64,000 bases of DNA, taken from IMG/VR virus record IMGVR_UViG_3300043122_000207, positions 96,001 through 160,000 of that record. One strand, written 5' to 3'. Below are positions 9,343-48,618 of the stretch, one piece after another (positions within the stretch are counted from its first letter, which is position 1; every line of letters starts with the position of its first letter). A program made the position numbers and the translations under genes. The DNA comes from a virus. The notes below the pieces were generated by a model, which was not told the DNA's origin, did no database searches, and saw only the letters and a program-made list of their open reading frames with translations.

Positions 9343-9383
9343 ATTATATATTATTAGAGTGAAGCAAGTTGAATATTAAAAAA
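9343..9383 (+). repeat. Early promoter plus leader, 41-bp exact duplicate of 46648-46688
   Basis: ATTATATATTATTAGAGTGAAGCAAGTTGAATATTAAAAAA at both sites. Confidence 0.9.
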
Positions 9384-9406
9384 AAAATTAAAAAGGAGAT
9401 GGTCAA

Positions 9407-10192
9407 ATGAAAAAAGATATTGATAATTTTGAAAATGACAACAATGGTAATGAAAGAGACAATAATCAAAGTAGGGGGAATAAAAAAATGAGCAACGAGA
9501 GACCAAAGAAAACAAGTCTAAAAGATAGTTTCAACGACAGAGATTTCAGCCCACAACACAGTGGTGTTAATTTGGGTTCAGTGAAGGAATATGACGAACC
9601 TGAATTATTAGTTACTAATTTAAGCTATCAAGCAATCTCAGATTTCCTGCTTGAGAACATACAGGAAATTAAACCTGAAAAGGTTAACTGGGAAAGGTTT
9701 GATATCGAATCACTTGCTAGTCAAATTCAAGTTGACAGTGAGGCTGCTATTGATACCATTTGTAAAATTAGTGGTGCAAACTATCGTGATGGTAGATTCA
9801 CAGATTTCTTCGATGCTATTCCTATTTTAGTATTTAAGAAATTGGATGTTGTTGAGAAGCTATCTGTAGATGAAGATTTGGGAGCACTGTCTAGAGAAGA
9901 ATATGAAATTGATTTCTCTAAGATTAAGCAGAAGAATCGTAGATTTTTCCCAAGCCACGGTATGGTTGCTAGTGTGGATAAGGTTAATGAATTGGTGTCA
10001 GTTAATGTTAACATCATTTCAGTGATTGTTTCTGCATTAGGTTATGATCCTGCTAGATTCGGTAGACCTAGTGAAAGAAACAAGTTATTCTTATATACAA
10101 AACAGCAACCACAATCCAGGAACTTTAAAATTGCTATTGCAAATAATAAGTTTCTAGATGATAGATTATTTGATTTACTACAAAGAATTTAA
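9407..10192 (+). CDS. Hypothetical early protein (monocistronic)
   Basis: Own early promoter (9343), AAAAGGAGATGGT RBS and downstream terminator; N-terminus disordered. Confidence 0.75.
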   Translation: MKKDIDNFENDNNGNERDNNQSRGNKKMSNERPKKTSLKDSFNDRDFSPQHSGVNLGSVKEYDEPELLVTNLSYQAISDFLLENIQEIKPEKVNWERFDIESLASQIQVDSEAAIDTICKISGANYRDGRFTDFFDAIPILVFKKLDVVEKLSVDEDLGALSREEYEIDFSKIKQKNRRFFPSHGMVASVDKVNELVSVNVNIISVIVSALGYDPARFGRPSERNKLFLYTKQQPQSRNFKIAIANNKFLDDRLFDLLQRI

Positions 10193-11061: not shown

Positions 11062-11908
11062 TTTATCTAGAAGAATAATGTTTGATCTTTTAAAATTTAA
11101 AGATAATGAAAACATCCATATGGATGAATACAATACAGTAATAATTAATCTAAATAGTGTCTTCTCTACAACATTTTATGAGAGTATGATTAATGAATTT
11201 CTGGTAGATGAAGATAAGATGTCAGAATATGTGTCTTCAGTTAGTGAGATGTTTAAATTGGTTTTAACATCACTTAGAACCAAAAGGGTAATACTTATAT
11301 ATTCAAATGAGGTTTCTAACTTTGTTAAAATATACCCTAAATGGAGACACAACAGATACGATAATAAAAAGAAGAATGAATTTGCAAAGATGATTTTCGA
11401 ACATTTTGTGGATATATTCAACCAATTGAAAAAAGCAAGTCCACTTATAGAAATCATTAATACCAAACAGTTTGACCCGGCTGTTTTCACACACGCTTTC
11501 ATATTACTAAGAGATTACAAAAAAGAAATACTTTTGATTTCAAGAGATAGGTTGGATTTCTTAAACTTAATAAATGAAAACGTGACAATGTTTGATGGGC
11601 AAGAAACATATACAAAAGAAAACTTCTGTGAAAATACAGTTAAGAAATTACCCAATATAGATATAGAGTTCTTAAAATATTATTATACTATCCGGGGTAT
11701 AAAAAAATATGATTATCCAGGTGTGAGGGGTAAAGGAAGAAAGAGGACTATTAAATATATTGAAAGTAATCTTGATAGAATAGTGGATGGTGAAGATGAA
11801 AAGATACACCCATATATAAAGATATTCGATTTTGATTTATTTATTGAAAACTTAGATGAAGAAGAATACCAGACACTTTTAGATATTGTAAATAAGTCTA
11901 AATTCTAA
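11039..11908 (+). CDS. 5'-3' exonuclease / flap endonuclease-like (PIN plus H3TH)
   Basis: IINLNS N-terminal strand, ISRDRLD, and H3TH-like DYPGVRGKGRKRT; true start probably 11051. Confidence 0.55.
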   Translation: MVVTMDIDLSRRIMFDLLKFKDNENIHMDEYNTVIINLNSVFSTTFYESMINEFLVDEDKMSEYVSSVSEMFKLVLTSLRTKRVILIYSNEVSNFVKIYPKWRHNRYDNKKKNEFAKMIFEHFVDIFNQLKKASPLIEIINTKQFDPAVFTHAFILLRDYKKEILLISRDRLDFLNLINENVTMFDGQETYTKENFCENTVKKLPNIDIEFLKYYYTIRGIKKYDYPGVRGKGRKRTIKYIESNLDRIVDGEDEKIHPYIKIFDFDLFIENLDEEEYQTLLDIVNKSKF

Positions 11909-11924
11909 TAGGTTGGTTAAATTT

Positions 11925-11949
11925 AAAGAGGGGTGTACCCTCTTTTTTT
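11925..11949 (+). terminator. Intrinsic terminator
   Basis: AAAGAGGG..CCCTCTTT plus T tract. Confidence 0.8.
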
Positions 11950-11967
11950 GTGAATTAAGCAGTATTC

Positions 11968-11981
11968 AACAACTATATTAG
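11968..11981 (+). promoter_or_regulatory. Late promoter AACAA-N6-TAG
   Basis: AACAACTATATTAG. Confidence 0.65.
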
Positions 11982-12015
11982 ATATCGATTACTTTTATTT
12001 AAGGAGGAAAAATAG

Positions 12016-13083
12016 ATGATTGTAGAACAGCAAATAGGTGAGATTCTCGGTACCATTTTATCTTCTAAGGTTTCTCTATCTATCAAAAAAACATTATTTA
12101 ATACCATATCAAAAAACACTAGCATCACACGTTCTGCTCAGGGTAGTTCTATTGTGTTTCCTGTTATCGCCACAGATGACATCACAAAAGATGTTACCAT
12201 GGAATTAGCGAAATCAGCAGAAGTTAAAATTGCATATGATATTAAAAGAATTTTAGAAAGAGACATTGCATCTGGACCAGATAAGGTAAATTATCAATCC
12301 GTAGTAGAAATGCTTCCTTTTGACAACTCTGGTGCTGTTGATTTGGCAACACTTAATGGTTTAAAAAATAGTGAATTAGATGCTAAGATCACATTAGAGA
12401 GAGAGGCTATTGATTACGTAGCTTCCAGAATTAAAGACGTCAATGTTGAAGTTTATTCAGAAGCTAAATCTTATCTTATTAAAGAAAGAGGTTCTGAACC
12501 AACAAATATTGAAATAGAAGTTAAATATGTTACCGGTGGTAATAAAAATGAAATTAAATCAATAAGATACAATATGGCTATTCAAGCTGTACCTAGATAT
12601 GTGCCAGCGACTACATTAAGGATGAAGTTATCAACATATGATACAAAGAGATTTTTTAAAAGGTTCGTTTCTTTAACAAATCCAGAAAAACATTTCGTTA
12701 AAGATTTTTTAATTGACTATGATGTTATGAAAGAGATGGCTAAAGAAAGAACTAAGAAAAACAGTGTGTTTAAAGAGATAGAGCAAGCCAGACTCAAAAA
12801 AGACATGGGGTTACAAAAATACCCATTCTCAGTATTTCTGGTCACAAAAGATTTTGTAGATAAGTTAGAGTCTTCTGAAAAAATGGACATGTATAATGAA
12901 AGCCAGATGATTATGAAAAAACTGATGGCAATGGGTATCTATATTTATGATACAGATACCGATTTAGTAGAAATCAAATACGATGGAGATAAAGTTTTTA
13001 CAAAATATCCATTTGATGAAGTTGCTAAAGACACCAGTAGATACGAAAAGGAATTAAAACAGTTAGTTAGACTAAATAAATAA
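12016..13083 (+). CDS. Putative virion (head) structural protein
   Basis: Late promoter at 11968-11981; SITRSAQGSSIVFPVIAT pattern recalled from AR9-like virion proteins. Confidence 0.55.
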   Translation: MIVEQQIGEILGTILSSKVSLSIKKTLFNTISKNTSITRSAQGSSIVFPVIATDDITKDVTMELAKSAEVKIAYDIKRILERDIASGPDKVNYQSVVEMLPFDNSGAVDLATLNGLKNSELDAKITLEREAIDYVASRIKDVNVEVYSEAKSYLIKERGSEPTNIEIEVKYVTGGNKNEIKSIRYNMAIQAVPRYVPATTLRMKLSTYDTKRFFKRFVSLTNPEKHFVKDFLIDYDVMKEMAKERTKKNSVFKEIEQARLKKDMGLQKYPFSVFLVTKDFVDKLESSEKMDMYNESQMIMKKLMAMGIYIYDTDTDLVEIKYDGDKVFTKYPFDEVAKDTSRYEKELKQLVRLNK

Positions 13084-15823: not shown

Positions 15824-17194
15824 ATGGAGATGGGTAGAAAAGGACTTAGTTTTTCATTTTTGAATTTAGAAAAATTAGTTAAAAAAGACATTAAGAATGA
15901 AACTGGTTTTATGTTGGATACCAGTATAAACTACCTTTATTTGTACAAAGAGGAAATGTTAATGAGTGATTCTATTTATTCTAGAAAGTTTGGAATAAGT
16001 GAATCAGACCCTAAAAGTATACTGGCTTATCTTTACACATGTAAATGTGAGAATTTATTAGGTCAGAATAATAAAGGGAGAGTTTGTCCTGAGTGTGGTT
16101 ATAAAGTAAAAAAACAAGAGTTCCCAATAACGATAAGAGCTTGGGGTAAAATAGCACCACATAAAATAATGACTTATGCAGGTTTACTACACTTTAGAAC
16201 TGTACTTGGGAGAAAGAACTTTAAGAAATTTTTGAATGGGAAGTTAAAAACAGAGGACGGAAGTAAAATAAAGGTTACAGAATTATATGAGAAATTTGAT
16301 ATAGTTTTAAAGAAGGTAGGTAAATCATCTAAATCAGACACCACTAAATTTCTTTTAAAACACAAAGAAGATTTCTTCACATCGTATATACCTGTGATAA
16401 GTAAGAAAACAAGGTATTTACACAGGAGCGAGAATATCGTTCCCCATTATACAATTCATGATATGAATAGTATATACACATCAATATCTGGTGACATACA
16501 AACTCTAAGGGATTACTGTGATAGAGAAAATACCCCAAAGATTACAGAAAATACTGTTAGAGCTATACAGAGAAAATACTGGGATTTAAACGACAACTTA
16601 ATAACAGAAATAGTCGGTGGGGGTAAAGAAAAGATATTACGTAACGAGATATTCGCAACAAGATTACCCTTTACTTCACGTTGTGTGATTGTGCCACATG
16701 TCACCAAACATATTGATGCGATAACTGTACCTTATGATGTCTTTAGAGGTATATTTAGAAGAGAGATATTTGATGTTCTAGTCAATAATGGGATGCCAGT
16801 AGATAGAGCTTATAGGTTTATTGATATTAATATCGATCTAAGAGAAGACGATAAGAAAGTTCTTGATGAGATACTGGAAAAAGATATCGAGAACAATTAT
16901 GTTCTCGTCAATAGACAACCGACATTAAAATTTGAATCCACCAAATCATTGAGGATATCAAGTCTCGAAGATGAAAATGTATTAAGGATACCTTCTGTTC
17001 TGCTTGAAGGATACAATGGTGATCATGACGGTGATGCACTTACTATGACACACCAAGATAGAGATTTATATATGGACATCCATGTGTATATGCAACCTAA
17101 AGTACACATAGTAGATTATAAAAGGAAAGTTAATGAGGGGTTAAGTCTAATAAAATCTCAGTCATTAATATTTAAATCTAGTTTAGAAGAGTAG
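15824..17194 (+). CDS. Non-virion RNA polymerase beta' subunit, N-terminal/catalytic part (phiKZ gp55 / AR9 gp270-like)
   Basis: Zn finger CKC..CPECG, SRCVIVP, NRQPTL and catalytic loop YNGDHDGD; early promoter at 15750. Confidence 0.9.
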   Translation: MEMGRKGLSFSFLNLEKLVKKDIKNETGFMLDTSINYLYLYKEEMLMSDSIYSRKFGISESDPKSILAYLYTCKCENLLGQNNKGRVCPECGYKVKKQEFPITIRAWGKIAPHKIMTYAGLLHFRTVLGRKNFKKFLNGKLKTEDGSKIKVTELYEKFDIVLKKVGKSSKSDTTKFLLKHKEDFFTSYIPVISKKTRYLHRSENIVPHYTIHDMNSIYTSISGDIQTLRDYCDRENTPKITENTVRAIQRKYWDLNDNLITEIVGGGKEKILRNEIFATRLPFTSRCVIVPHVTKHIDAITVPYDVFRGIFRREIFDVLVNNGMPVDRAYRFIDINIDLREDDKKVLDEILEKDIENNYVLVNRQPTLKFESTKSLRISSLEDENVLRIPSVLLEGYNGDHDGDALTMTHQDRDLYMDIHVYMQPKVHIVDYKRKVNEGLSLIKSQSLIFKSSLEE

Positions 17195-22017: not shown

Positions 22018-22046
22018 TTTTATCACCATTTCATTGTTATCAAAAC

Positions 22047-22076
22047 AAAAAAATGTGTGGGGTTTTAACCCCACAT
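22047..22076 (-). terminator. Intrinsic terminator
   Basis: TGTGGGG..CCCCACA with T tract on the - strand. Confidence 0.75.
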
Positions 22077-22202
22077 CTTATAAGGAATTAATATGGAGAA
22101 AACAAGGCAAGGGATTAAGAGAAATACATAATGATCTCATCTAAGACACTTGGGATAGTTTCAATAAGTTCACAGTGTATTTTTATTTCTTAATCTACCT
22201 CT
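22047..22202 (-). ncRNA. Candidate late small RNA
   Basis: Late promoter at 22201-22213 (-), no RBS-led sense ORF, terminator at 22047-22076 (-). Confidence 0.3.
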
Positions 22203-22213
22203 AGTATATTGTT
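22201..22213 (-). promoter_or_regulatory. Late promoter AACAA-N5-TAG
   Basis: AACAATATACTAG on the - strand, identical to 33955-33967. Confidence 0.6.
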
Positions 22214-23802: not shown

Positions 23803-26800
23803 TTATTCGATGTCCATATCTTCTTTACACTGTTTTATAAGTTTTCTCATTGCACCTGTTAGGAGCCCTGAAATAAAAACAGAGTTAGTCATTCTTTTCA
23901 TAGGTGAATTTGGTGATAAAACCACATCAACATTTCTGCCAGTTTCAACACCTGTTGGCATCTTCTCGTCATCGTAAACTCTGGCATTAATGGCTTTTAA
24001 AGAGGTATAGTTTGTACCCTTATCACCAGTGGAGAAGATATCATAACTTTCCACATAATACTCAAATAAAACTTCATCTTTATTAAGTTTTATACCATTT
24101 ATTTTATCACCAACCTTTACCTTAGCATTTTTCTTACCGAAAAGAATTTTACTTTCAGTTGAACCATGTTCTTCCAACTGTTTAGCATTAGATTGTTTGT
24201 TATTTAATAAAAAATCATCTATTTTTCTTATATGGTATTGTATACTGTTTGAATATTCGTCAAGATTAGAAGTTCTATAAACTCTCATATCAACTATTCT
24301 ACCACCACGTTTTACTTTCTTTTCGTGTTGATTTAATTCTGATGACTCTACATTTAAAAACTCATCAACCTCTTCATCACCAGTCATGGATTCGAAAACC
24401 ATTAACGGTTCTCCAGATCTCACCTCTTTGAATTCTGCAACAGACTCATGTATTTTAGCATCATTTTTTAAAAGAACAGCATATTTTTTAATAACCTTTG
24501 TTGCTAATCTTTTTGTAAGTGATCTAGAAACCATAGTGGAATCCTCATAAGTCTCTGGTGCTGAATGTAATGCTAGAGTAACTATTGGACCAGGAGTAAA
24601 ATGAAGTGAATATCCGTCTGTTTTAAAGAAGTTTTTATTATATGCTAAAACATCGCCGGCTTTTATTTTCTTACCAACTTTAATTTTTGGCATCAACTTC
24701 ATTTCGTTAGATATATACATGCTTTTAGCTGAATTCTTTTCTACAGAATTTATAGGGAAACTATCTTCTGTTCCGTCAGAGTATTCCACGGTAATATAAT
24801 TTCCAGATATATTAGATACCACGCCGTCTTTTTTAGATTTTCTAACAAACTCATTTGACATATGTGCTAAAGCTTCATCTGCACCAGTGGAGACCATTAG
24901 GGGGTCTGCATCTTCAACACCCATAAGGTGGTTTGTCTGACTTAAATTCATAGCAGTTCTCGGTGCATCATCTTTTGAGGTGGTCATAGGAGTTAAAACT
25001 TCCGATATAGATAGGAGTGTTTTAGAATCAAGATCATCCACATCCTCCATATCTACGTTTTCAAAAAACCCTCTAGCAGATAATATCTTTGGGTCTACAC
25101 CAAAATGCTTTACAACACCAATGGAACCTGAGTAAGCAGAAGCCATAGAGAATTTACCATAGAAACTAGGATCATACAATCTCTTATCTGCTGTGTATGC
25201 TCTATCTAAGTTCAACCCAGATAGACCTTTCATTGAAGCAGATGAATATTTATCTATCTCTCTAGCTGGATTAACAGTAGAGTATTCCTCAAGGTTTGGT
25301 AATTCATATAACTTTTTAATTACAGCATTTTTATCAATTGAGAAAGTAGATTTAGTATTACCTCTTTTTTTAGCAACAGAGAATTTTTCATATTCATCAG
25401 CTAAAACATTAGCCATTGTCGCAGTTATTAATTCCTGATATCTAACCCTTGAATTTCTTATATCGATGTCCTTTTCATTTACAGCTGTGGATAATAGATA
25501 ATTAGCATAAATTAAAAGATCGGTGAATTCAGTGGGTAAGGAAAAATGAACCAATATATTTTTGGTTATTGCATCTATCATCGTATTATTGTAGTTATCA
25601 ATATATACTGGGAAATTATGACTACCCATTTCATCTTCTAATATATTTGCCATAACATCTTTATCTTCTAAGTCTGCTAGTTCGTATCCAGAAAGATCCA
25701 TTCTCTGCAAGTAACTCATAATAGATATATTAGCCATTGAATCATATTTATAAATTAAATATGTGTCTTCAAATTCAATTAGACCTTCTTTAAATTTATC
25801 TATCTTTGGTTTCTTTTCTTTAGTTTCTAACCTATAATCAATATCCATTTTTTCCATTAAAGAATCTAAGCCCATAAGATAAGTTAATATAAGAACTAAG
25901 GGTGCATCTTTACCCAGTATCTTTACAGAAGTATAAACGATAGTTTTTGGCACTGTGTTTTTTTCTTCAATATACTTATGGAGTTTTGGGATATATTCCT
26001 CTGAAACTTTTATCAGAAATTCTGATAAAACCATACCCTTATAATCACCATCGGTGGTTATGGTTTCTGTCTCTTTATTTAGGATTATCTCGTTACCTTC
26101 TATCTCACCTAGAACAATTTCATTTTCATTATCGTTTTCATACAACTGTTTTGATTTTTCATAATCGAATATAAGGTTAACGCTATTTGTGTTTACTTCT
26201 GATAAATATCTTGATATACCATTATATTCTCTAGTGGTTTCCCCTGTATTGAAGTTGGTTTCAAAAGCTGATTCAAAATTAATTATATCAGACTTATTTT
26301 CATCTTCAAACTTTTTAAAACCTCTGACAAATTTAGAATAAATAGGAGATAGGTATTTTCCACCTTTATATGTCATCCGTAATTTATTTCTATTTGAGGT
26401 TATAATAACGTACTCTTCATTTTTTGTTATGGGGTTACTCATGATCTGTCCTATGATATTTTTTTTAGAACCACCAAGATACACAAATTTATCATAAACC
26501 AATTTTGGTAATGTTATTTTCACATTGTGCCTATTACCCTCTAAATCTTTGAATTTCATTTTGATATCTTCAGTATAGTTTAACTCATCTGATGAGTCTT
26601 CTGTTTCTATTTTTTGAATGTATAAGGGGACATCTGTATTAGAGAAAGATTGTGCTATTTCTGTAATATCAAATTTCTTTAATTTTTCATCATATGTTTT
26701 ATTGAAGTTAACAAAAGAGTTCTCATTGTATTTATCTATGGCTGTTATATCATATGAATCTTTTGGTACATCTATATCCTTTATTTCTTCTAGAAGTTCA

Positions 26801-30906: not shown

Positions 30907-30935
30907 CCCCAGGGCATTGCGCCCTGGGTAAAATA
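30907..30935 (+). terminator. Hairpin/terminator after the 29430 gene
   Basis: CCCAGGGC-att-GCGCCCTGGG. Confidence 0.6.
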
Positions 30936-31084
30936 AATATTTAAAAGGAGTTGATACTTAGGTTATATTTTTTATTTAATTAGGAGATGATATAACCTAA
31001 ATATCGGTGGCAAGTACAGAACAGTTTTTCTGACTTGCAATTATCGTGAAAAAGCTTTACTTATTAAAGGAGAGTATTCATATT

Positions 31085-31183
31085 ATGCAAAAAACATTTA
31101 TATTAAAAAGATTGCAAGAATATACTAGGCAATACAAAGTCTCATTTGTATTTACAGGAGCTGAATCATTTTATATTTATTAA
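31085..31183 (+). CDS. Possible 32-aa peptide MQKTFILKRLQEYTRQYKVSFVFTGAESFYIY
   Basis: AAGGAG about 12 nt upstream of ATG in an otherwise non-coding region. Confidence 0.25.
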   Translation: MQKTFILKRLQEYTRQYKVSFVFTGAESFYIY

Positions 31184-31341
31184 CTGAATAAAGGAAGCTA
31201 TTATTTATATTAAAGGGTGCTCAGAGGCAGAAAAGATAAAACAAGAATTATTTGTCATAATATATTGTAAGAAAGTTATATTTTTGTATTGGTTGTACGC
31301 CCAGTATACAACCAAGAAATCGTTAGAATGTTATCATAAAC

Positions 31342-32505: not shown

Positions 32506-32684
32506 ATGACTTCACCTCCCAAAAATTATTTTTAAAAATGCTTCAAGAATATTGTTATCAGAAAAAAATGTGAAGAATAAAAAATAATATTTTTATGTGG
32601 GGAACAACTATAGACAAAAATCGAAAAGTGACGGGGTAAAAACAGACAACAAAGAAGAACTTATAATTTTTAAAATAAATTTAA

Positions 32685-32758
32685 AAATTATGTTAATAAT
32701 TTATATAGTACCCCCGTAAGGGATAAGGTACGTTAAATATAAATTATTAACATAATTT
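32685..32758. repeat. 22-bp perfect inverted repeat enclosing a GNRA-capped mini-stem
   Basis: AAATTATGTTAATAATTTATAT (32685-32706) and its reverse complement (32737-32758); spacer contains GTACC-CCC-GTAA-GGG..GGTAC. Confidence 0.9.
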
Positions 32759-33007
32759 ATATATTAACTCTTTATTAAACCTATGAGTAAATAATTAGTT
32801 CTATTTGTTCTAGAGATTTAACCCGTACTTTCATAAAAAACCAAAGTGACCAAAGAAAAGTTATAAACAAAAGAAATAGTTGTGCCAGATTAAGAGGCTG
32901 AGGGGGTGGTGTGGTGCCGCCGCCGGCTGCCGATGACTGTTATGACGGTGATCTTAAATTTAGATGTTATTATTGACTTTTGATTCAGACATTTTTCATT
33001 TTTCAAT

Positions 33008-33020
33008 AACAAAATATTAG
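33008..33020 (+). promoter_or_regulatory. Late promoter AACAA-N5-TAG
   Basis: AACAAAATATTAG. Confidence 0.6.
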
Positions 33021-33057
33021 TCGGAATTAAAAAATAAAATTTAGGAGATGAAATCTT

Positions 33058-33942: not shown

Positions 33943-33954
33943 TAAATATAATCT

Positions 33955-33967
33955 AACAATATACTAG
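33955..33967 (+). promoter_or_regulatory. Late promoter driving an ORF-less unit
   Basis: AACAATATACTAG. Confidence 0.6.
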
Positions 33968-34192
33968 TGGAAATTAGTGAATTGATCACTTACAATTTAT
34001 CCTTTGCTCCTGGGATTAATTGTGGCAGCTAATTATCCTTATTCAGCAGCTAAGCAGTTGTCAATTCTTTTTTCAATTTCTAACCATCTCCCTTTTTGAT
34101 TTGCGGGTGTTGTGAACCGGAAATAAAACAACACCCGTTACATACTTAATTCTAATTCTTATATATTCCCAGGGTAAAACCTGGGATTTTAA
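33966..34192 (+). ncRNA. Candidate late small RNA
   Basis: Late promoter at 33955-33967, no sense ORF, hairpins (34012-34038; 34104-34137) and terminator at 34168-34190. Confidence 0.4.
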
Positions 34193-34232
34193 TTTGGCAA
34201 AAATAAACCCAGGGAATAACCCCTGGGTTTTG
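34168..34232. terminator. Back-to-back terminator hairpins
   Basis: CCCAGGGTAAAACCTGGG plus TTTT, and AAACCCAGGG..CCCTGGGTTT. Confidence 0.8.
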
Positions 34233-34240
34233 TTAATCTA

Positions 34241-34444
34241 TTACATACCTTTATTTTTTTGCTGTTCCATATATTTTTTTCTTTCTAAAAATTCCATTTT
34301 GGAATCAACCATATCTTCAATTTCAGAATTAGTCATAGTTTCCAATTCTGTTTTGGTTATTTTATCATCGAAGAATTCAAGCAGTTCGATCGTTAGTTCT
34401 GATTTCTGTTTGATAGTCTCTCTTGTATCGAACTGTTGATCGTA
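34241..34444 (-). CDS. -1 frame extension of the 34393-35853 gene (67 aa, YDQQFDTRE...KNKGM)
   Basis: Open -1 frame beginning at an 8-T slippery run (34444-34451) with no RBS/start of its own; ends before terminator 34204-34232. Confidence 0.6.
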   Translation of the reverse strand, partial: YDQQFDTRETIKQKSELTIELLEFFDDKITKTELETMTNSEIEDMVDSKMEFLERKKYMEQQKNKGM

Positions 34445-35853
34445 AAAAAAAGCATATCATTCACATTTTTATTATCGTTTTCAATCCACTTACCACACTC
34501 TGTACATTTAAACGGTTCACCTTGGAATTGATACTCTATATCTGATATCAATTCTTGGTCAGCACCATCTGAAATTTCCATCATCAATTCATCTGGTAGA
34601 TTATCTATAGCTTCTTGTATTTCTTCAACCTCATCGTGAATTGTTGAGAACTGAATTGTACCCACATTATCTTTTGTATCTCTTAAATCTTCAATGGTTA
34701 AAAGATCAATGAATAATAAAGATTCAGTGTATGTTTCATGGATGTTATTAACTTCAGCTCTTTTATTGTGCCATAGATATTTAAGTTTTTCATCTGTATC
34801 TGTGCTTCTTCTTAATCTCTGTGGTAAATATTCTGATAACCTATTGATGATTAAAATCCTAACCTGTTCATCAATAAACATATATTTTTTAAGATTAGGA
34901 GCTGATAACTCTACAGTATATTTAATTTCATCTTTTTCTAAAGTTACTTCTTTTTTCTTACCCATTACTGTTTTGCTTTGTAATTCATCGATTGTTTTGG
35001 TTGGATCATATTCGAAATCTTCCATTTCGTTATTCAATGAATTATCAAATATTTCTCTTATATTTTCAGTGGCTTTATTCTGTGTACCACAATGTGGGCA
35101 GTTAATAACTGAATCTACCCCTTTATTTGGTGTATTAGCTAAAGCCCATACAGCATTGATTAAAGGTAAATCCCCTGGTGATGTGATTTCTAAGAAAGTA
35201 GAAAAGTCAACCTTTTCACCATCTTTAAATTCAAATTCAGAATTCTCAAAGATGGTTTTGATTTTTTCTAAACTCTGGAAGAAACCAAACTCTTTCTCAT
35301 ATAAAACATTATATGCATCCCTTGTTTTAATGAATGTATTGAGTCCGTGCATTTTGATTATATAATTACTTTCAAAAAGAGGGAAAGATACACCTCTGTC
35401 TTTTCTACTTATGGTTTTAAGTTTCTGGAGTTTACTTAAATCACCAGCACGCTTTTTATTAGATACTCTGGATTCCATATCGATGACTTTATTTTTTTTC
35501 TTGGGTTCTTTATCTTTTTGATCTCTTTTTCTTTTGATCTCTTCTTTTTCTTTTTCTTCCTGTTCCTTAGATTCAATAGCTTTATTGTGTACTTCCGATA
35601 CAGTCTTTAAAGTGTTTACTGCATCTTTCATACCTTTATCTATTTCCTCCATATCTTCTTTTGGGATTCTATCTTTCATTGTGACCTTTTGTTCTGGTAA
35701 ATCCATATCGAGATTTAATTCTTTCTTTTCTTCTTTTGTTGGTTTTTCAAAATTGACTTCCTCTTTACTATCCTCGGCTCCATTATTATCTTCAACTTTA
35801 TCGTCAGCATTTTCTTTAAGAAAATCACTAACTTTATATTTCTTTTTTTCCAT
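34393..35853 (-). CDS. Tail/baseplate assembly protein with two CxxC motifs (gp26/chaperone-like)
   Basis: CPHCG and CTECG motifs, acidic/charged N-terminus, late promoter at 35895-35907, next to the gp25-like gene. Confidence 0.55.
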   Translation of the reverse strand: MEKKKYKVSDFLKENADDKVEDNNGAEDSKEEVNFEKPTKEEKKELNLDMDLPEQKVTMKDRIPKEDMEEIDKGMKDAVNTLKTVSEVHNKAIESKEQEEKEKEEIKRKRDQKDKEPKKKNKVIDMESRVSNKKRAGDLSKLQKLKTISRKDRGVSFPLFESNYIIKMHGLNTFIKTRDAYNVLYEKEFGFFQSLEKIKTIFENSEFEFKDGEKVDFSTFLEITSPGDLPLINAVWALANTPNKGVDSVINCPHCGTQNKATENIREIFDNSLNNEMEDFEYDPTKTIDELQSKTVMGKKKEVTLEKDEIKYTVELSAPNLKKYMFIDEQVRILIINRLSEYLPQRLRRSTDTDEKLKYLWHNKRAEVNNIHETYTESLLFIDLLTIEDLRDTKDNVGTIQFSTIHDEVEEIQEAIDNLPDELMMEISDGADQELISDIEYQFQGEPFKCTECGKWIENDNKNVNDMLFFTINSSIQERLSNRNQN

Positions 35854-38668: not shown

Positions 38669-38848
38669 TAAAGAGAAGTGATAGAATAATAAATTAAACA
38701 TACAGTTTTAAAACAGTTAAAGGAGTTGATTCATATGAAATAAAGAAAAAATTTTTACACACAACAAAAGAAGTAGATAAGAGAATCAAAAAGATTTAAT
38801 TAATTAATTAATTAAAAACTAAAAAATTTAAAGAGGAGATGGTTTTAA

Positions 38849-39733
38849 ATGAACACAGTATTTACTAAGCCGATTTCGCACGATAGTCTACAAAGAATGT
38901 TTGACAATATTGATATGAGTTTGGACGCAATCAATAATAGTAGACAGTTGATTTGTCCACACATGAAAGAAGTTGGATCCAATAACATGGATGAAGAAAC
39001 TTCTTTTAAATCTCAAGCTAAAAAAGTTGGGGAGAAAACTCTAAGTTTCTATATTGATGATCACGAGATTACATTGAAGGGTAACATGTTTCAGTGTCAT
39101 GTCTGTGGTTCAAGGTTCTTTGTACCTATGCAGAGACTTAAAGAAACAGATAGTGAATTAGAAAGATTTGCTAGTTGGGCACAAATGTTCCTTAACACAT
39201 TGAAACTTTTCAAAGGTTTCGTTTATGCGGATCCTATTATTCGTGGAGGTTTCGATGGAGATATGGGACTTAATGTTCCAAAGAAAGTTCGTGCCAATGT
39301 TGGTACACCATATTTAAAAGAACTTGCTGGCATGAATGTCCACATGAGTTCAGATTCTAGAGCAGCTAGAGCTGATAGAAGTCTTCAGCTTGATAGAGCA
39401 TTGTTTATTGCTCACCTTGAGGCTTTAGAAGAAATCTATTCTGCAATCGTTCGTTACTTACAGGGCGAAGAAGTAATTATGTCAGAAGAAGATTTAGAAC
39501 TCGGTGCTTTCATGACAGGTGTTGGTGATGGTGGATATAACCCATATAGAGGTGATGTCCCAAACGCTTATGTTGACAGTAGAAGAGAACCAAGATACTT
39601 GGATTCCATCGTTCAACCTAATGAGCGAGAAACCAATATTGGTGGAAGACCAAGACAGCAAGCCACAAGAACAGCAAGTAAAGAAAAAAAATCATCAGGT
39701 AAAAAATCTGGTGGAATGAAAAAAGATGTGTAA
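38849..39733 (+). CDS. Hypothetical early protein with Zn-binding motifs (CPH, CHVC)
   Basis: Early promoter at 38657, GGAGATGGT RBS, basic disordered tail, terminator after. Confidence 0.7.
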   Translation: MNTVFTKPISHDSLQRMFDNIDMSLDAINNSRQLICPHMKEVGSNNMDEETSFKSQAKKVGEKTLSFYIDDHEITLKGNMFQCHVCGSRFFVPMQRLKETDSELERFASWAQMFLNTLKLFKGFVYADPIIRGGFDGDMGLNVPKKVRANVGTPYLKELAGMNVHMSSDSRAARADRSLQLDRALFIAHLEALEEIYSAIVRYLQGEEVIMSEEDLELGAFMTGVGDGGYNPYRGDVPNAYVDSRREPRYLDSIVQPNERETNIGGRPRQQATRTASKEKKSSGKKSGGMKKDV

Positions 39734-47981: not shown

Positions 47982-47994
47982 AGGAGATGGTAAA

Positions 47995-48618
47995 ATGAAT
48001 GGAAATAGAAATCAGATATTCAATGACATTATTGATGCGATGGAATACCACATCGATAATAATTTATCGGGCGGTGTGATAAGCAATGATCGAATGGAAG
48101 AGATTAATATGATGCTCTTCAATCACTTAGCCAAAGGATCCAATAACCGAGATAGACAATTGGTTATTAATCGAAAGGTTAGAGGAAGAAGAGGTGAATC
48201 TGATAAAGATTTTAAGCTGAGGTTGAGGGTTGACGTTGATGAAAGTCTGCGTTCCCGTAGACCACATGTTGATAGGTCAAGGATTGCTGAAAGAGAATCC
48301 AATGACCTCAGAGAGGTATTTGAAAGATACACAATGAGTGTTTCAGAAATGGACAATAAAAGAGACATTGTTCAGCTCTATGTTAATACTTACATGTGTA
48401 TCGAAGATGGGTTTGCGGATATGTTTGAAGAACTATTCCAAGATGGGAAGATGTCAGACCCAGGGTATCTCGATATGATTGCCAGTGGTGAAGTGTTCTA
48501 TGAGTATGGTGGTTTTAGAATATTCCCAATGGCGAATGAATCGACATGGTCTTTAAGTTATGAAACTACACCATTAATTTCAACTGGAATCAAAAATGAT
48601 TTTGGTTGGAATAATTAG
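47995..48618 (+). CDS. Hypothetical early protein
   Basis: 207 aa, AAGGAGATGGT RBS, Arg-rich central segment. Confidence 0.7.
   Translation: MNGNRNQIFNDIIDAMEYHIDNNLSGGVISNDRMEEINMMLFNHLAKGSNNRDRQLVINRKVRGRRGESDKDFKLRLRVDVDESLRSRRPHVDRSRIAERESNDLREVFERYTMSVSEMDNKRDIVQLYVNTYMCIEDGFADMFEELFQDGKMSDPGYLDMIASGEVFYEYGGFRIFPMANESTWSLSYETTPLISTGIKNDFGWNN

Follow-up and report, generated by a model that had tools for sequence, protein, structure and literature searches.

A conserved late-promoter non-coding unit of an AR9-like giant phage as a candidate antisense RNA against early-gene start regions

The unit at 33955-34192 of the analysed DNA, a stretch of 64,000 nucleotides from an uncultured AR9-like giant phage (the window), is a real, conserved non-coding element, as judged from its retention in relatives. 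The reading that we favour, with somewhat better than even confidence, is that it encodes a late trans-encoded antisense small RNA silencing specific early genes, and late shut-off of the early genes that it mirrors is probably its effect. The evidence consists of sequence, conservation, predicted pairing and covariation between two lineages. The initial annotation had likewise proposed a late RNA acting in trans to block early translation; this stands as the best reading, backed by conservation, strand evidence and covariation, but its blanket switch operated by this RNA alone gives way to one main predicted target, gene 9407, and a second, gene 38849. The pairing predicted with these two genes covers far more than the 9-nt RBS word.

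The source is a 146-kb virus record (31% GC, 82% complete), and contigs of 192-195 kb exist that carry the same neighbouring protein. The rankings of start sites given below cover the 146-kb record only, from which 48 kb of genome is absent, and they comprise phage starts only. The phage encodes split multisubunit RNA polymerase subunits, and its nearest cultured relatives are the Fusobacterium phages JD-Fnp and the Bacillus phages AR9/PBS1 (~27% identity). In AR9, the early promoter is AAATATATATTAT-6N-G and the late promoter is AACA-6N-TA/G (PMC5312081). Both motifs were found before genes of this genome, the late one before many, and genes are called early or late here because of these AR9-type motifs, that is, by homology.

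Architecture and conservation of the unit

The unit and its surroundings comprise the following features.

33955-33967 (+): late (non-virion RNA polymerase) promoter AACA-N6-TAG, which fits the late consensus of AR9 (PMC5312081) and also stands at the head of the homologues in contigs L009 and L011
33966-34192 (+): candidate small RNA gene, fold z -3.76, conserved in L009 and L011, without an Rfam match
33968-33990 (+): 5' strands of stems P0/P1, predicted to lock away two segments of the antisense arm (34057-34067, 34075-34082); L011 has no P0
33992-34023 (+): predicted hairpin P2, kept with changed sequence
34057-34082 (+): antisense arm, mirroring 9407 from the spacer through the start codon and first 7 codons; 34061-34078 is invariant
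34083-34097 (+): anti-Shine-Dalgarno tract, predicted toehold, with an unpaired probability of 0.9 (window) and 0.68 (L011)
34103-34138 (+): hairpin P4, with a U8 run after it in L011 that may mark the 3' end; the G-U pairs of P4 argue for the + strand
34167-34192 (+): intrinsic terminator of the unit, located at 34167-34186
34205-34230 (-): terminator of the converging 486-aa gene, which insulates the unit from minus-strand read-through

The predicted transcription start is 33966/33967, and the candidate RNA would be ~175 nt long if it ends after P4 or ~225 nt long if it ends at the terminator. The whole unit folds at -58.8 kcal/mol, and 0/200 shuffled sequences folded as well. The 3' hairpins supply much of this signal, because the 5' domain (33975-34103) folded alone gives a z score of only -1.3. 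No sense ORF of at least 50 aa lies within 33943-34193, and no RBS-led ORF of at least 30 codons was found. An Rfam search, which the initial annotation had called for, gave 0 covariance-model matches at the gathering threshold, the best weak ones being far below it and unrelated, and ARAGORN detected no tRNA or tmRNA structure in the unit.

Most of the architecture described in the initial annotation is thus upheld, namely the late promoter, the lack of a sense frame, the terminator, the long 5' stem (33968-75 with 34075-82 and 33979-86 with 34060-67) and the hairpin that it had placed at 34104-34137. Its sequence for the tract was also correct, and the tract is not sequestered in our prediction. 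The hairpin that it drew at 34012-34038 is an alternative fold; the predicted, conserved one is P2.

Relatives were reached via the neighbouring 486-aa protein, which is 88% identical in L009 and 60% identical in L011, a contig of assembly GCA_048623395.1. The L009 copy of the unit is nearly identical. L011 is without both upstream genes, yet it retains the unit with its promoter, P1 strands, P2, arm, tract and P4. Positions 34057-34097 are 36/40 identical to L011 (90%), against 67% for the whole core and 52% for the part after P4; for comparison, codons at unchanged residues are 54-58% identical in three genes. P4 of L011 contains several G-U pairs that would be mismatches on the opposite strand, which fixes the + strand. 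Searches for further homologues by blastn against phages (chance matches only), by pattern and protein scans of viral contigs and by a protein scan of metagenomes were empty.

Two observations concern the flanks of the unit. A T8 run lies near the end of the 486-aa gene (34241-34460, minus strand), with an open -1 frame to 34241; the T run is also present in L012 and JD-Fnp1 and resembles the G/GT frameshift of tail assembly chaperones. On the other side, 32506-33057 is AT-rich, lacks ORFs and contains a sharp G/C island; it may be an origin or packaging site, and a similar stretch occupies the same place in the distant relatives L008 (about 11900-12180) and L024 (about 16550-16600).

Predicted targets, covariation and alternative readings

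Three sites on the + strand were considered as targets.

9343-9427 (+): main predicted target, gene 9407-10192 (261 aa), with its early promoter at 9343-9354 and its translation-initiation region at 9390-9427
38835-38851 (+): second predicted target, the RBS, spacer and start of early gene 38849-39733 (294 aa, CxxC-type motifs)
47983-47997 (+): weaker RBS-level match before gene 47995, named in the initial annotation

The conserved stretch at 34057-34097 exceeds an anti-Shine-Dalgarno motif, as its complement reads the RBS, spacer, start codon and about the first seven codons of 9407, which lies ~25 kb from the unit. The new point here is that the predicted pairing extends beyond the Shine-Dalgarno site into the start codon and coding sequence. 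By duplex energy, 9407 ranked first of 149 genes (-37.7; next -29.5), with a duplex spanning 9390-9427 and four small bulges, and full cofolding likewise placed it at the top, among 144 (-29.0; next -25.8; mean -11.1, sd 4.9). The arm without the Shine-Dalgarno tract selected the same start (36.0; next 27.5; mean 15.2, sd 3.8). Controls with shuffled arms gave P 0.023 for this match, and those with chimeric starts gave P 0.046 or 0.006; 2% of real starts resemble another start equally well, and 10% do so among GGAGATG starts. The single-genome significance of the 9407 match is modest (P 0.006-0.05), and one genome alone would not settle the matter.

The 9407 protein has no match in Pfam, PHROG, NCBIfam or PDB, and neither these resources nor Atlas gave a lead to the function of 9407 or 38849. 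Structural models had a pLDDT of about 42, with a best Z of 3.1 for 9407, and no confirmation was obtained for the JGI label 'tRNA-binding EMAP/Myf-like' on one cluster member. JD-Fnp1 yielded no 9407 homologue, and nothing antirepressor-like was seen among the scanned neighbours. Within the gene, 9470-9490 holds an internal Met28 that is invariant in three phages and preceded by a purine-rich site, a possible second start for a short isoform. Gene 38849 is conserved as far as Fusobacterium phage JD-Fnp1.

The initial annotation had listed three exact RBS matches to the tract. The three places are right, but the + strand of the whole 146-kb record contains GGAGATGGT seven times, and six of these copies are an RBS. 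Its description of the targets as early holds for 9407 and 38849; gene 47995 is without an early promoter within 150 nt and would be early only if it is co-transcribed from the promoter at about 46650. The idea of an early-type RBS is borne out, because a GGAGATG ribosome site precedes 9/14 early-promoter starts versus 1/24 late-promoter starts (Fisher P 1e-4). With this motif concentrated in early genes, a weaker and broader early targeting is plausible, and the RNA may act more weakly on several early genes or on genes of the host. Pattern matches in metagenomes and genomes were chance ones inside bacterial coding sequence, so no perfect host target was found there.

The covariation analysis used the 9407 orthologue found in the assembly of L011 on a separate contig, L022; the two contigs were assumed to be one phage, and the comparison includes two independent lineages only. 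The true start of this orthologue is most likely L022:2160, a position that follows an early promoter and an RBS and precedes the called start. The L011 RNA ranked L022:2160 first of 43 candidate starts, at -36.5 versus -25.3 for the next (an 11 kcal/mol margin), whereas the window RNA reaches only -25.2 on it. The 9407 RBS differs between the window (GGAGATGGT) and L022 (GGAGATGAT), with a matching change in the RNA. The pairing region of the RNA has four substitutions in total, each of which preserves or strengthens its pairing with the L022 target. The 38849 site shows the same shift from GGAGATGGT to GGAGATGAT, and the L011 RNA matches the orthologous site at 15/16 nt in the exact start-codon register. 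Early genes 14178 and 15824 keep GGAGATGAT in both phages, if orthology is assigned by position. A further 9407 orthologue, L023 from SRR21542053, differs in its start region.

In cofold swaps, the cognate pair was favoured in 3/4 comparisons. The window RNA gave -28.2 with its cognate site versus -17.2 with the swapped one for 9407, and -19.3 versus -12.0 for 38849; the L011 RNA gave -20.8 versus -13.0 for 38849. The exception is that the L011 RNA is predicted to bind the window 9407 site (-30.8) as well as its own (-27.3), as U-G wobble would allow, making this swap one-sided. The putative RNA and both predicted target sites changed together between the two lineages.

A different reading of the same data is that the tract alone matters, so that a broad anti-Shine-Dalgarno RNA dampens GGAGATG-type mRNAs of phage early genes and of the host, and the 9407 match is an upper-tail coincidence. 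The tract is the predicted exposed part of the RNA and has 13-nt exact matches to two further starts (48690 and G000 about 43714). Early starts pair better on average (mean cofold with the unit RNA -15.8 versus -11.6), the arm resembles a generic A-rich gene start, and streptococcal csRNAs bear such generic anti-SD/anti-AUG motifs (PMC3091779). However, 18 nt of the arm are invariant even where their own stem partner is mutated, the arm by itself points to a single gene, at about 5.5 sd, and the RNA covaries with its target sites. We regard this reading as unlikely, while giving it more weight than the three that follow.

Two further readings appear very improbable to us, and to a similar degree. 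The unit may be a protein-binding RNA or decoy, for instance by imitating the 3' tail of 16S rRNA or serving as the ligand of an RNA-binding protein, with incidental mRNA pairing; the tract resembles the Firmicute 16S 3' end, and the sister RNAs described below hold many repeated UCC motifs, like protein sponges, but the complementarity to coding sequence and the two-target covariation are left unexplained. Alternatively, the RNA may change the 9407 product instead of silencing the gene, blocking the first start and leaving the Met28 start (9488) to yield a shorter isoform late. Met28 is invariant in the three homologues behind a poorly conserved N/D/E-rich tail, all three have a GGG-containing site before it, and the gene caller chose it for P0034; against this, there is no evidence of internal-start use, and the idea is inapplicable to 38849.

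The last alternative, already raised in the initial annotation as a minus-strand RBS before a 12-codon ATT-start ORF (or a small-gene remnant), is highly improbable: the reverse complement does read as an RBS, spacer and ATT/TTG start with first codons conserved in L011, but there is no minus-strand promoter, a terminator lies just upstream, the length (12 v 14 codons from ATT, 8 v 10 from TTG) and C-terminus differ, conservation falls on the codons that mirror 9407 and, for the + strand, on its promoter, terminator and G-U pairs, and folding is better for the sense strand (-44.4 v -40.5; -35.7 v -25.9). The resemblance of the minus-strand peptide to the 9407 N-terminus is explained as a footprint of the complementarity to 9407.

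Sister elements and other non-coding units

The window also holds a candidate sister element.

30908-31341 (-): non-coding 3' trailer of late gene 32505-31342, ~430 nt, with about six anti-RBS motifs

The trailer is conserved in four phages (the window, L009, L011 and L021). Its segment 30976-30991 is a 16-nt exact complement of the start region of early gene 6803, and 30939-30956 is an 18-nt exact complement of an early gene beyond the window (G000 about 36980), both matches being given without a formal null. At 38715-38745, the 38849 leader has a two-codon uORF as well as an orphan RBS, the latter complementing a trailer motif over ~12 nt.

In more distant relatives, units with a late promoter, no ORF and several UCUCC-type motifs sit at the equivalent position or close to it. 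The syntenic late-promoter unit of L025 (12497-12080, minus strand) is 420 nt long with about seven anti-SD motifs, and that of L024 (16470-16175, minus strand) is 300 nt long with three. One L025 motif matches the altered RBS of the 38849 orthologue over 10 nt, which is suggestive only.

Other units were noted in passing. A second ORF-less late unit of the window, at 22040-22213 (-), has the identical 13-nt promoter and a fold z of -4.1; neither its 22050-22200 segment nor the loops of P2 and P3 matched any start over more than 10 nt. Three minus-strand features of L020 (8645-8515, 4551-4405 and 8444-8078) are a pair of late units without an ORF, one of which combines anti-SD and anti-AUG segments with a similar 5' stem, and a phage tmRNA with the tag ADNTALAPAA. 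The cultured Fusobacterium phage JD-Fnp1 (ON464759.1) has three intergenic clusters of a repeated GGYGTCC motif (26301-26464, 87274-87828 and 153745-154184), of which 87274-87828 sits among late-promoter-like motifs; the repeated motif does not complement the RBSs of that phage. The repeated motif in its syntenic gap was rejected as a homologue of the unit, being a different motif with no match to the phage's own RBSs.

Proposed action and comparison with known systems

In the favoured reading, that of a late antisense RNA against specific early genes, the phage non-virion RNA polymerase would make the RNA late. The unpaired C/U tract would nucleate on the Shine-Dalgarno site of early mRNAs, and on the 9407 mRNA the cofold structure has pairing extending ~35 nt over the start codon and first codons while unzipping stems P0/P1. 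The duplex would occlude the 30S site and block loading, and perhaps invite cleavage. Gene 38849 would be a second target, other GGAGATG-type early genes weaker ones, and the RNA one of several late anti-RBS RNAs sharing out the early genes. Transcription, timing, binding and repression are the steps of this scheme that we infer.

A wider proposal, to which we would give somewhat less than even weight, is that AR9-like giant phages use an RNA-level early-to-late switch, in which an early RBS variant and a set of late RNAs with complementary address motifs jointly silence chosen early genes, some by toehold-and-unzip. The set would comprise the unit, the trailer at 30908-31341 and the multi-motif RNAs of relatives. 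To our knowledge, how early expression stops in phages with a virion-packed RNA polymerase is not well explained. If true, the case adds a post-transcriptional layer to jumbo-phage development and marks two unannotated early proteins (9407 and 38849) whose late shut-off is under selection.

The unit has properties of a trans-encoded sRNA: its own promoter and terminator without a coding frame; a conserved seed that is predicted to be accessible; and a complementarity to a distant mRNA that is imperfect but preserved through compensatory change in two lineages, one swap being one-sided. A cis-encoded antisense RNA of the sar, OOP or aQ type was rejected, as the targets lie at 9407 and 38849 and the pairing contains bulges and mismatches. 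Comparable Bacillota sRNAs with C/U-rich seeds are RoxS/RsaE and LhrC, and the unit matches no Rfam family of this kind at the gathering threshold. The literature searched contained no trans-acting sRNA with an assigned target from a giant lytic phage, and the literature on phage RNAs, of incomplete coverage, described no such regulator for giant phages.

The closest phage likeness is the c4 antisense RNA of phages P1/P7, a structured RNA whose exposed segments pair around the RBS of the phage's own mRNA and block translation (PMC12197685). However, c4 is 77 nt long, belongs to temperate phages and controls an antirepressor for immunity, whereas the unit is driven by a late promoter, lies ~25 kb from its main predicted target, is directed at early genes, belongs to a phage with its own RNA polymerases and is without an Rfam match. 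The Streptococcus csRNAs also have an unpaired anti-SD plus anti-start-codon segment between stem-loops and a predicted block of initiation (PMC3091779). They differ in being host-encoded and host-regulated (e.g. by CiaR) with short seeds, whereas the unit is predicted to pair, with interruptions, over ~35 nt that are partly held in a stem, and the two share no sequence or Rfam similarity.

Among giant phages, as far as the accessible text of the reports goes, transcriptome papers describe antisense transcripts or sRNAs without targets (PMC5312081, PMC8244752, PMC11512511), including the AR9 late antisense transcripts (PMC5312081) and sRNA005 of 201phi2-1 with its phiKZ counterpart (PMC11512511). 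These are likewise non-coding transcripts of phages with multisubunit RNA polymerases, and the AR9 promoter classes are shared. In that same text they are cis-antisense or 5'UTR-derived RNAs without an assigned target or function, and none is a trans anti-RBS regulator. The present case supplies a named candidate RNA-target pair with natural compensatory variants.
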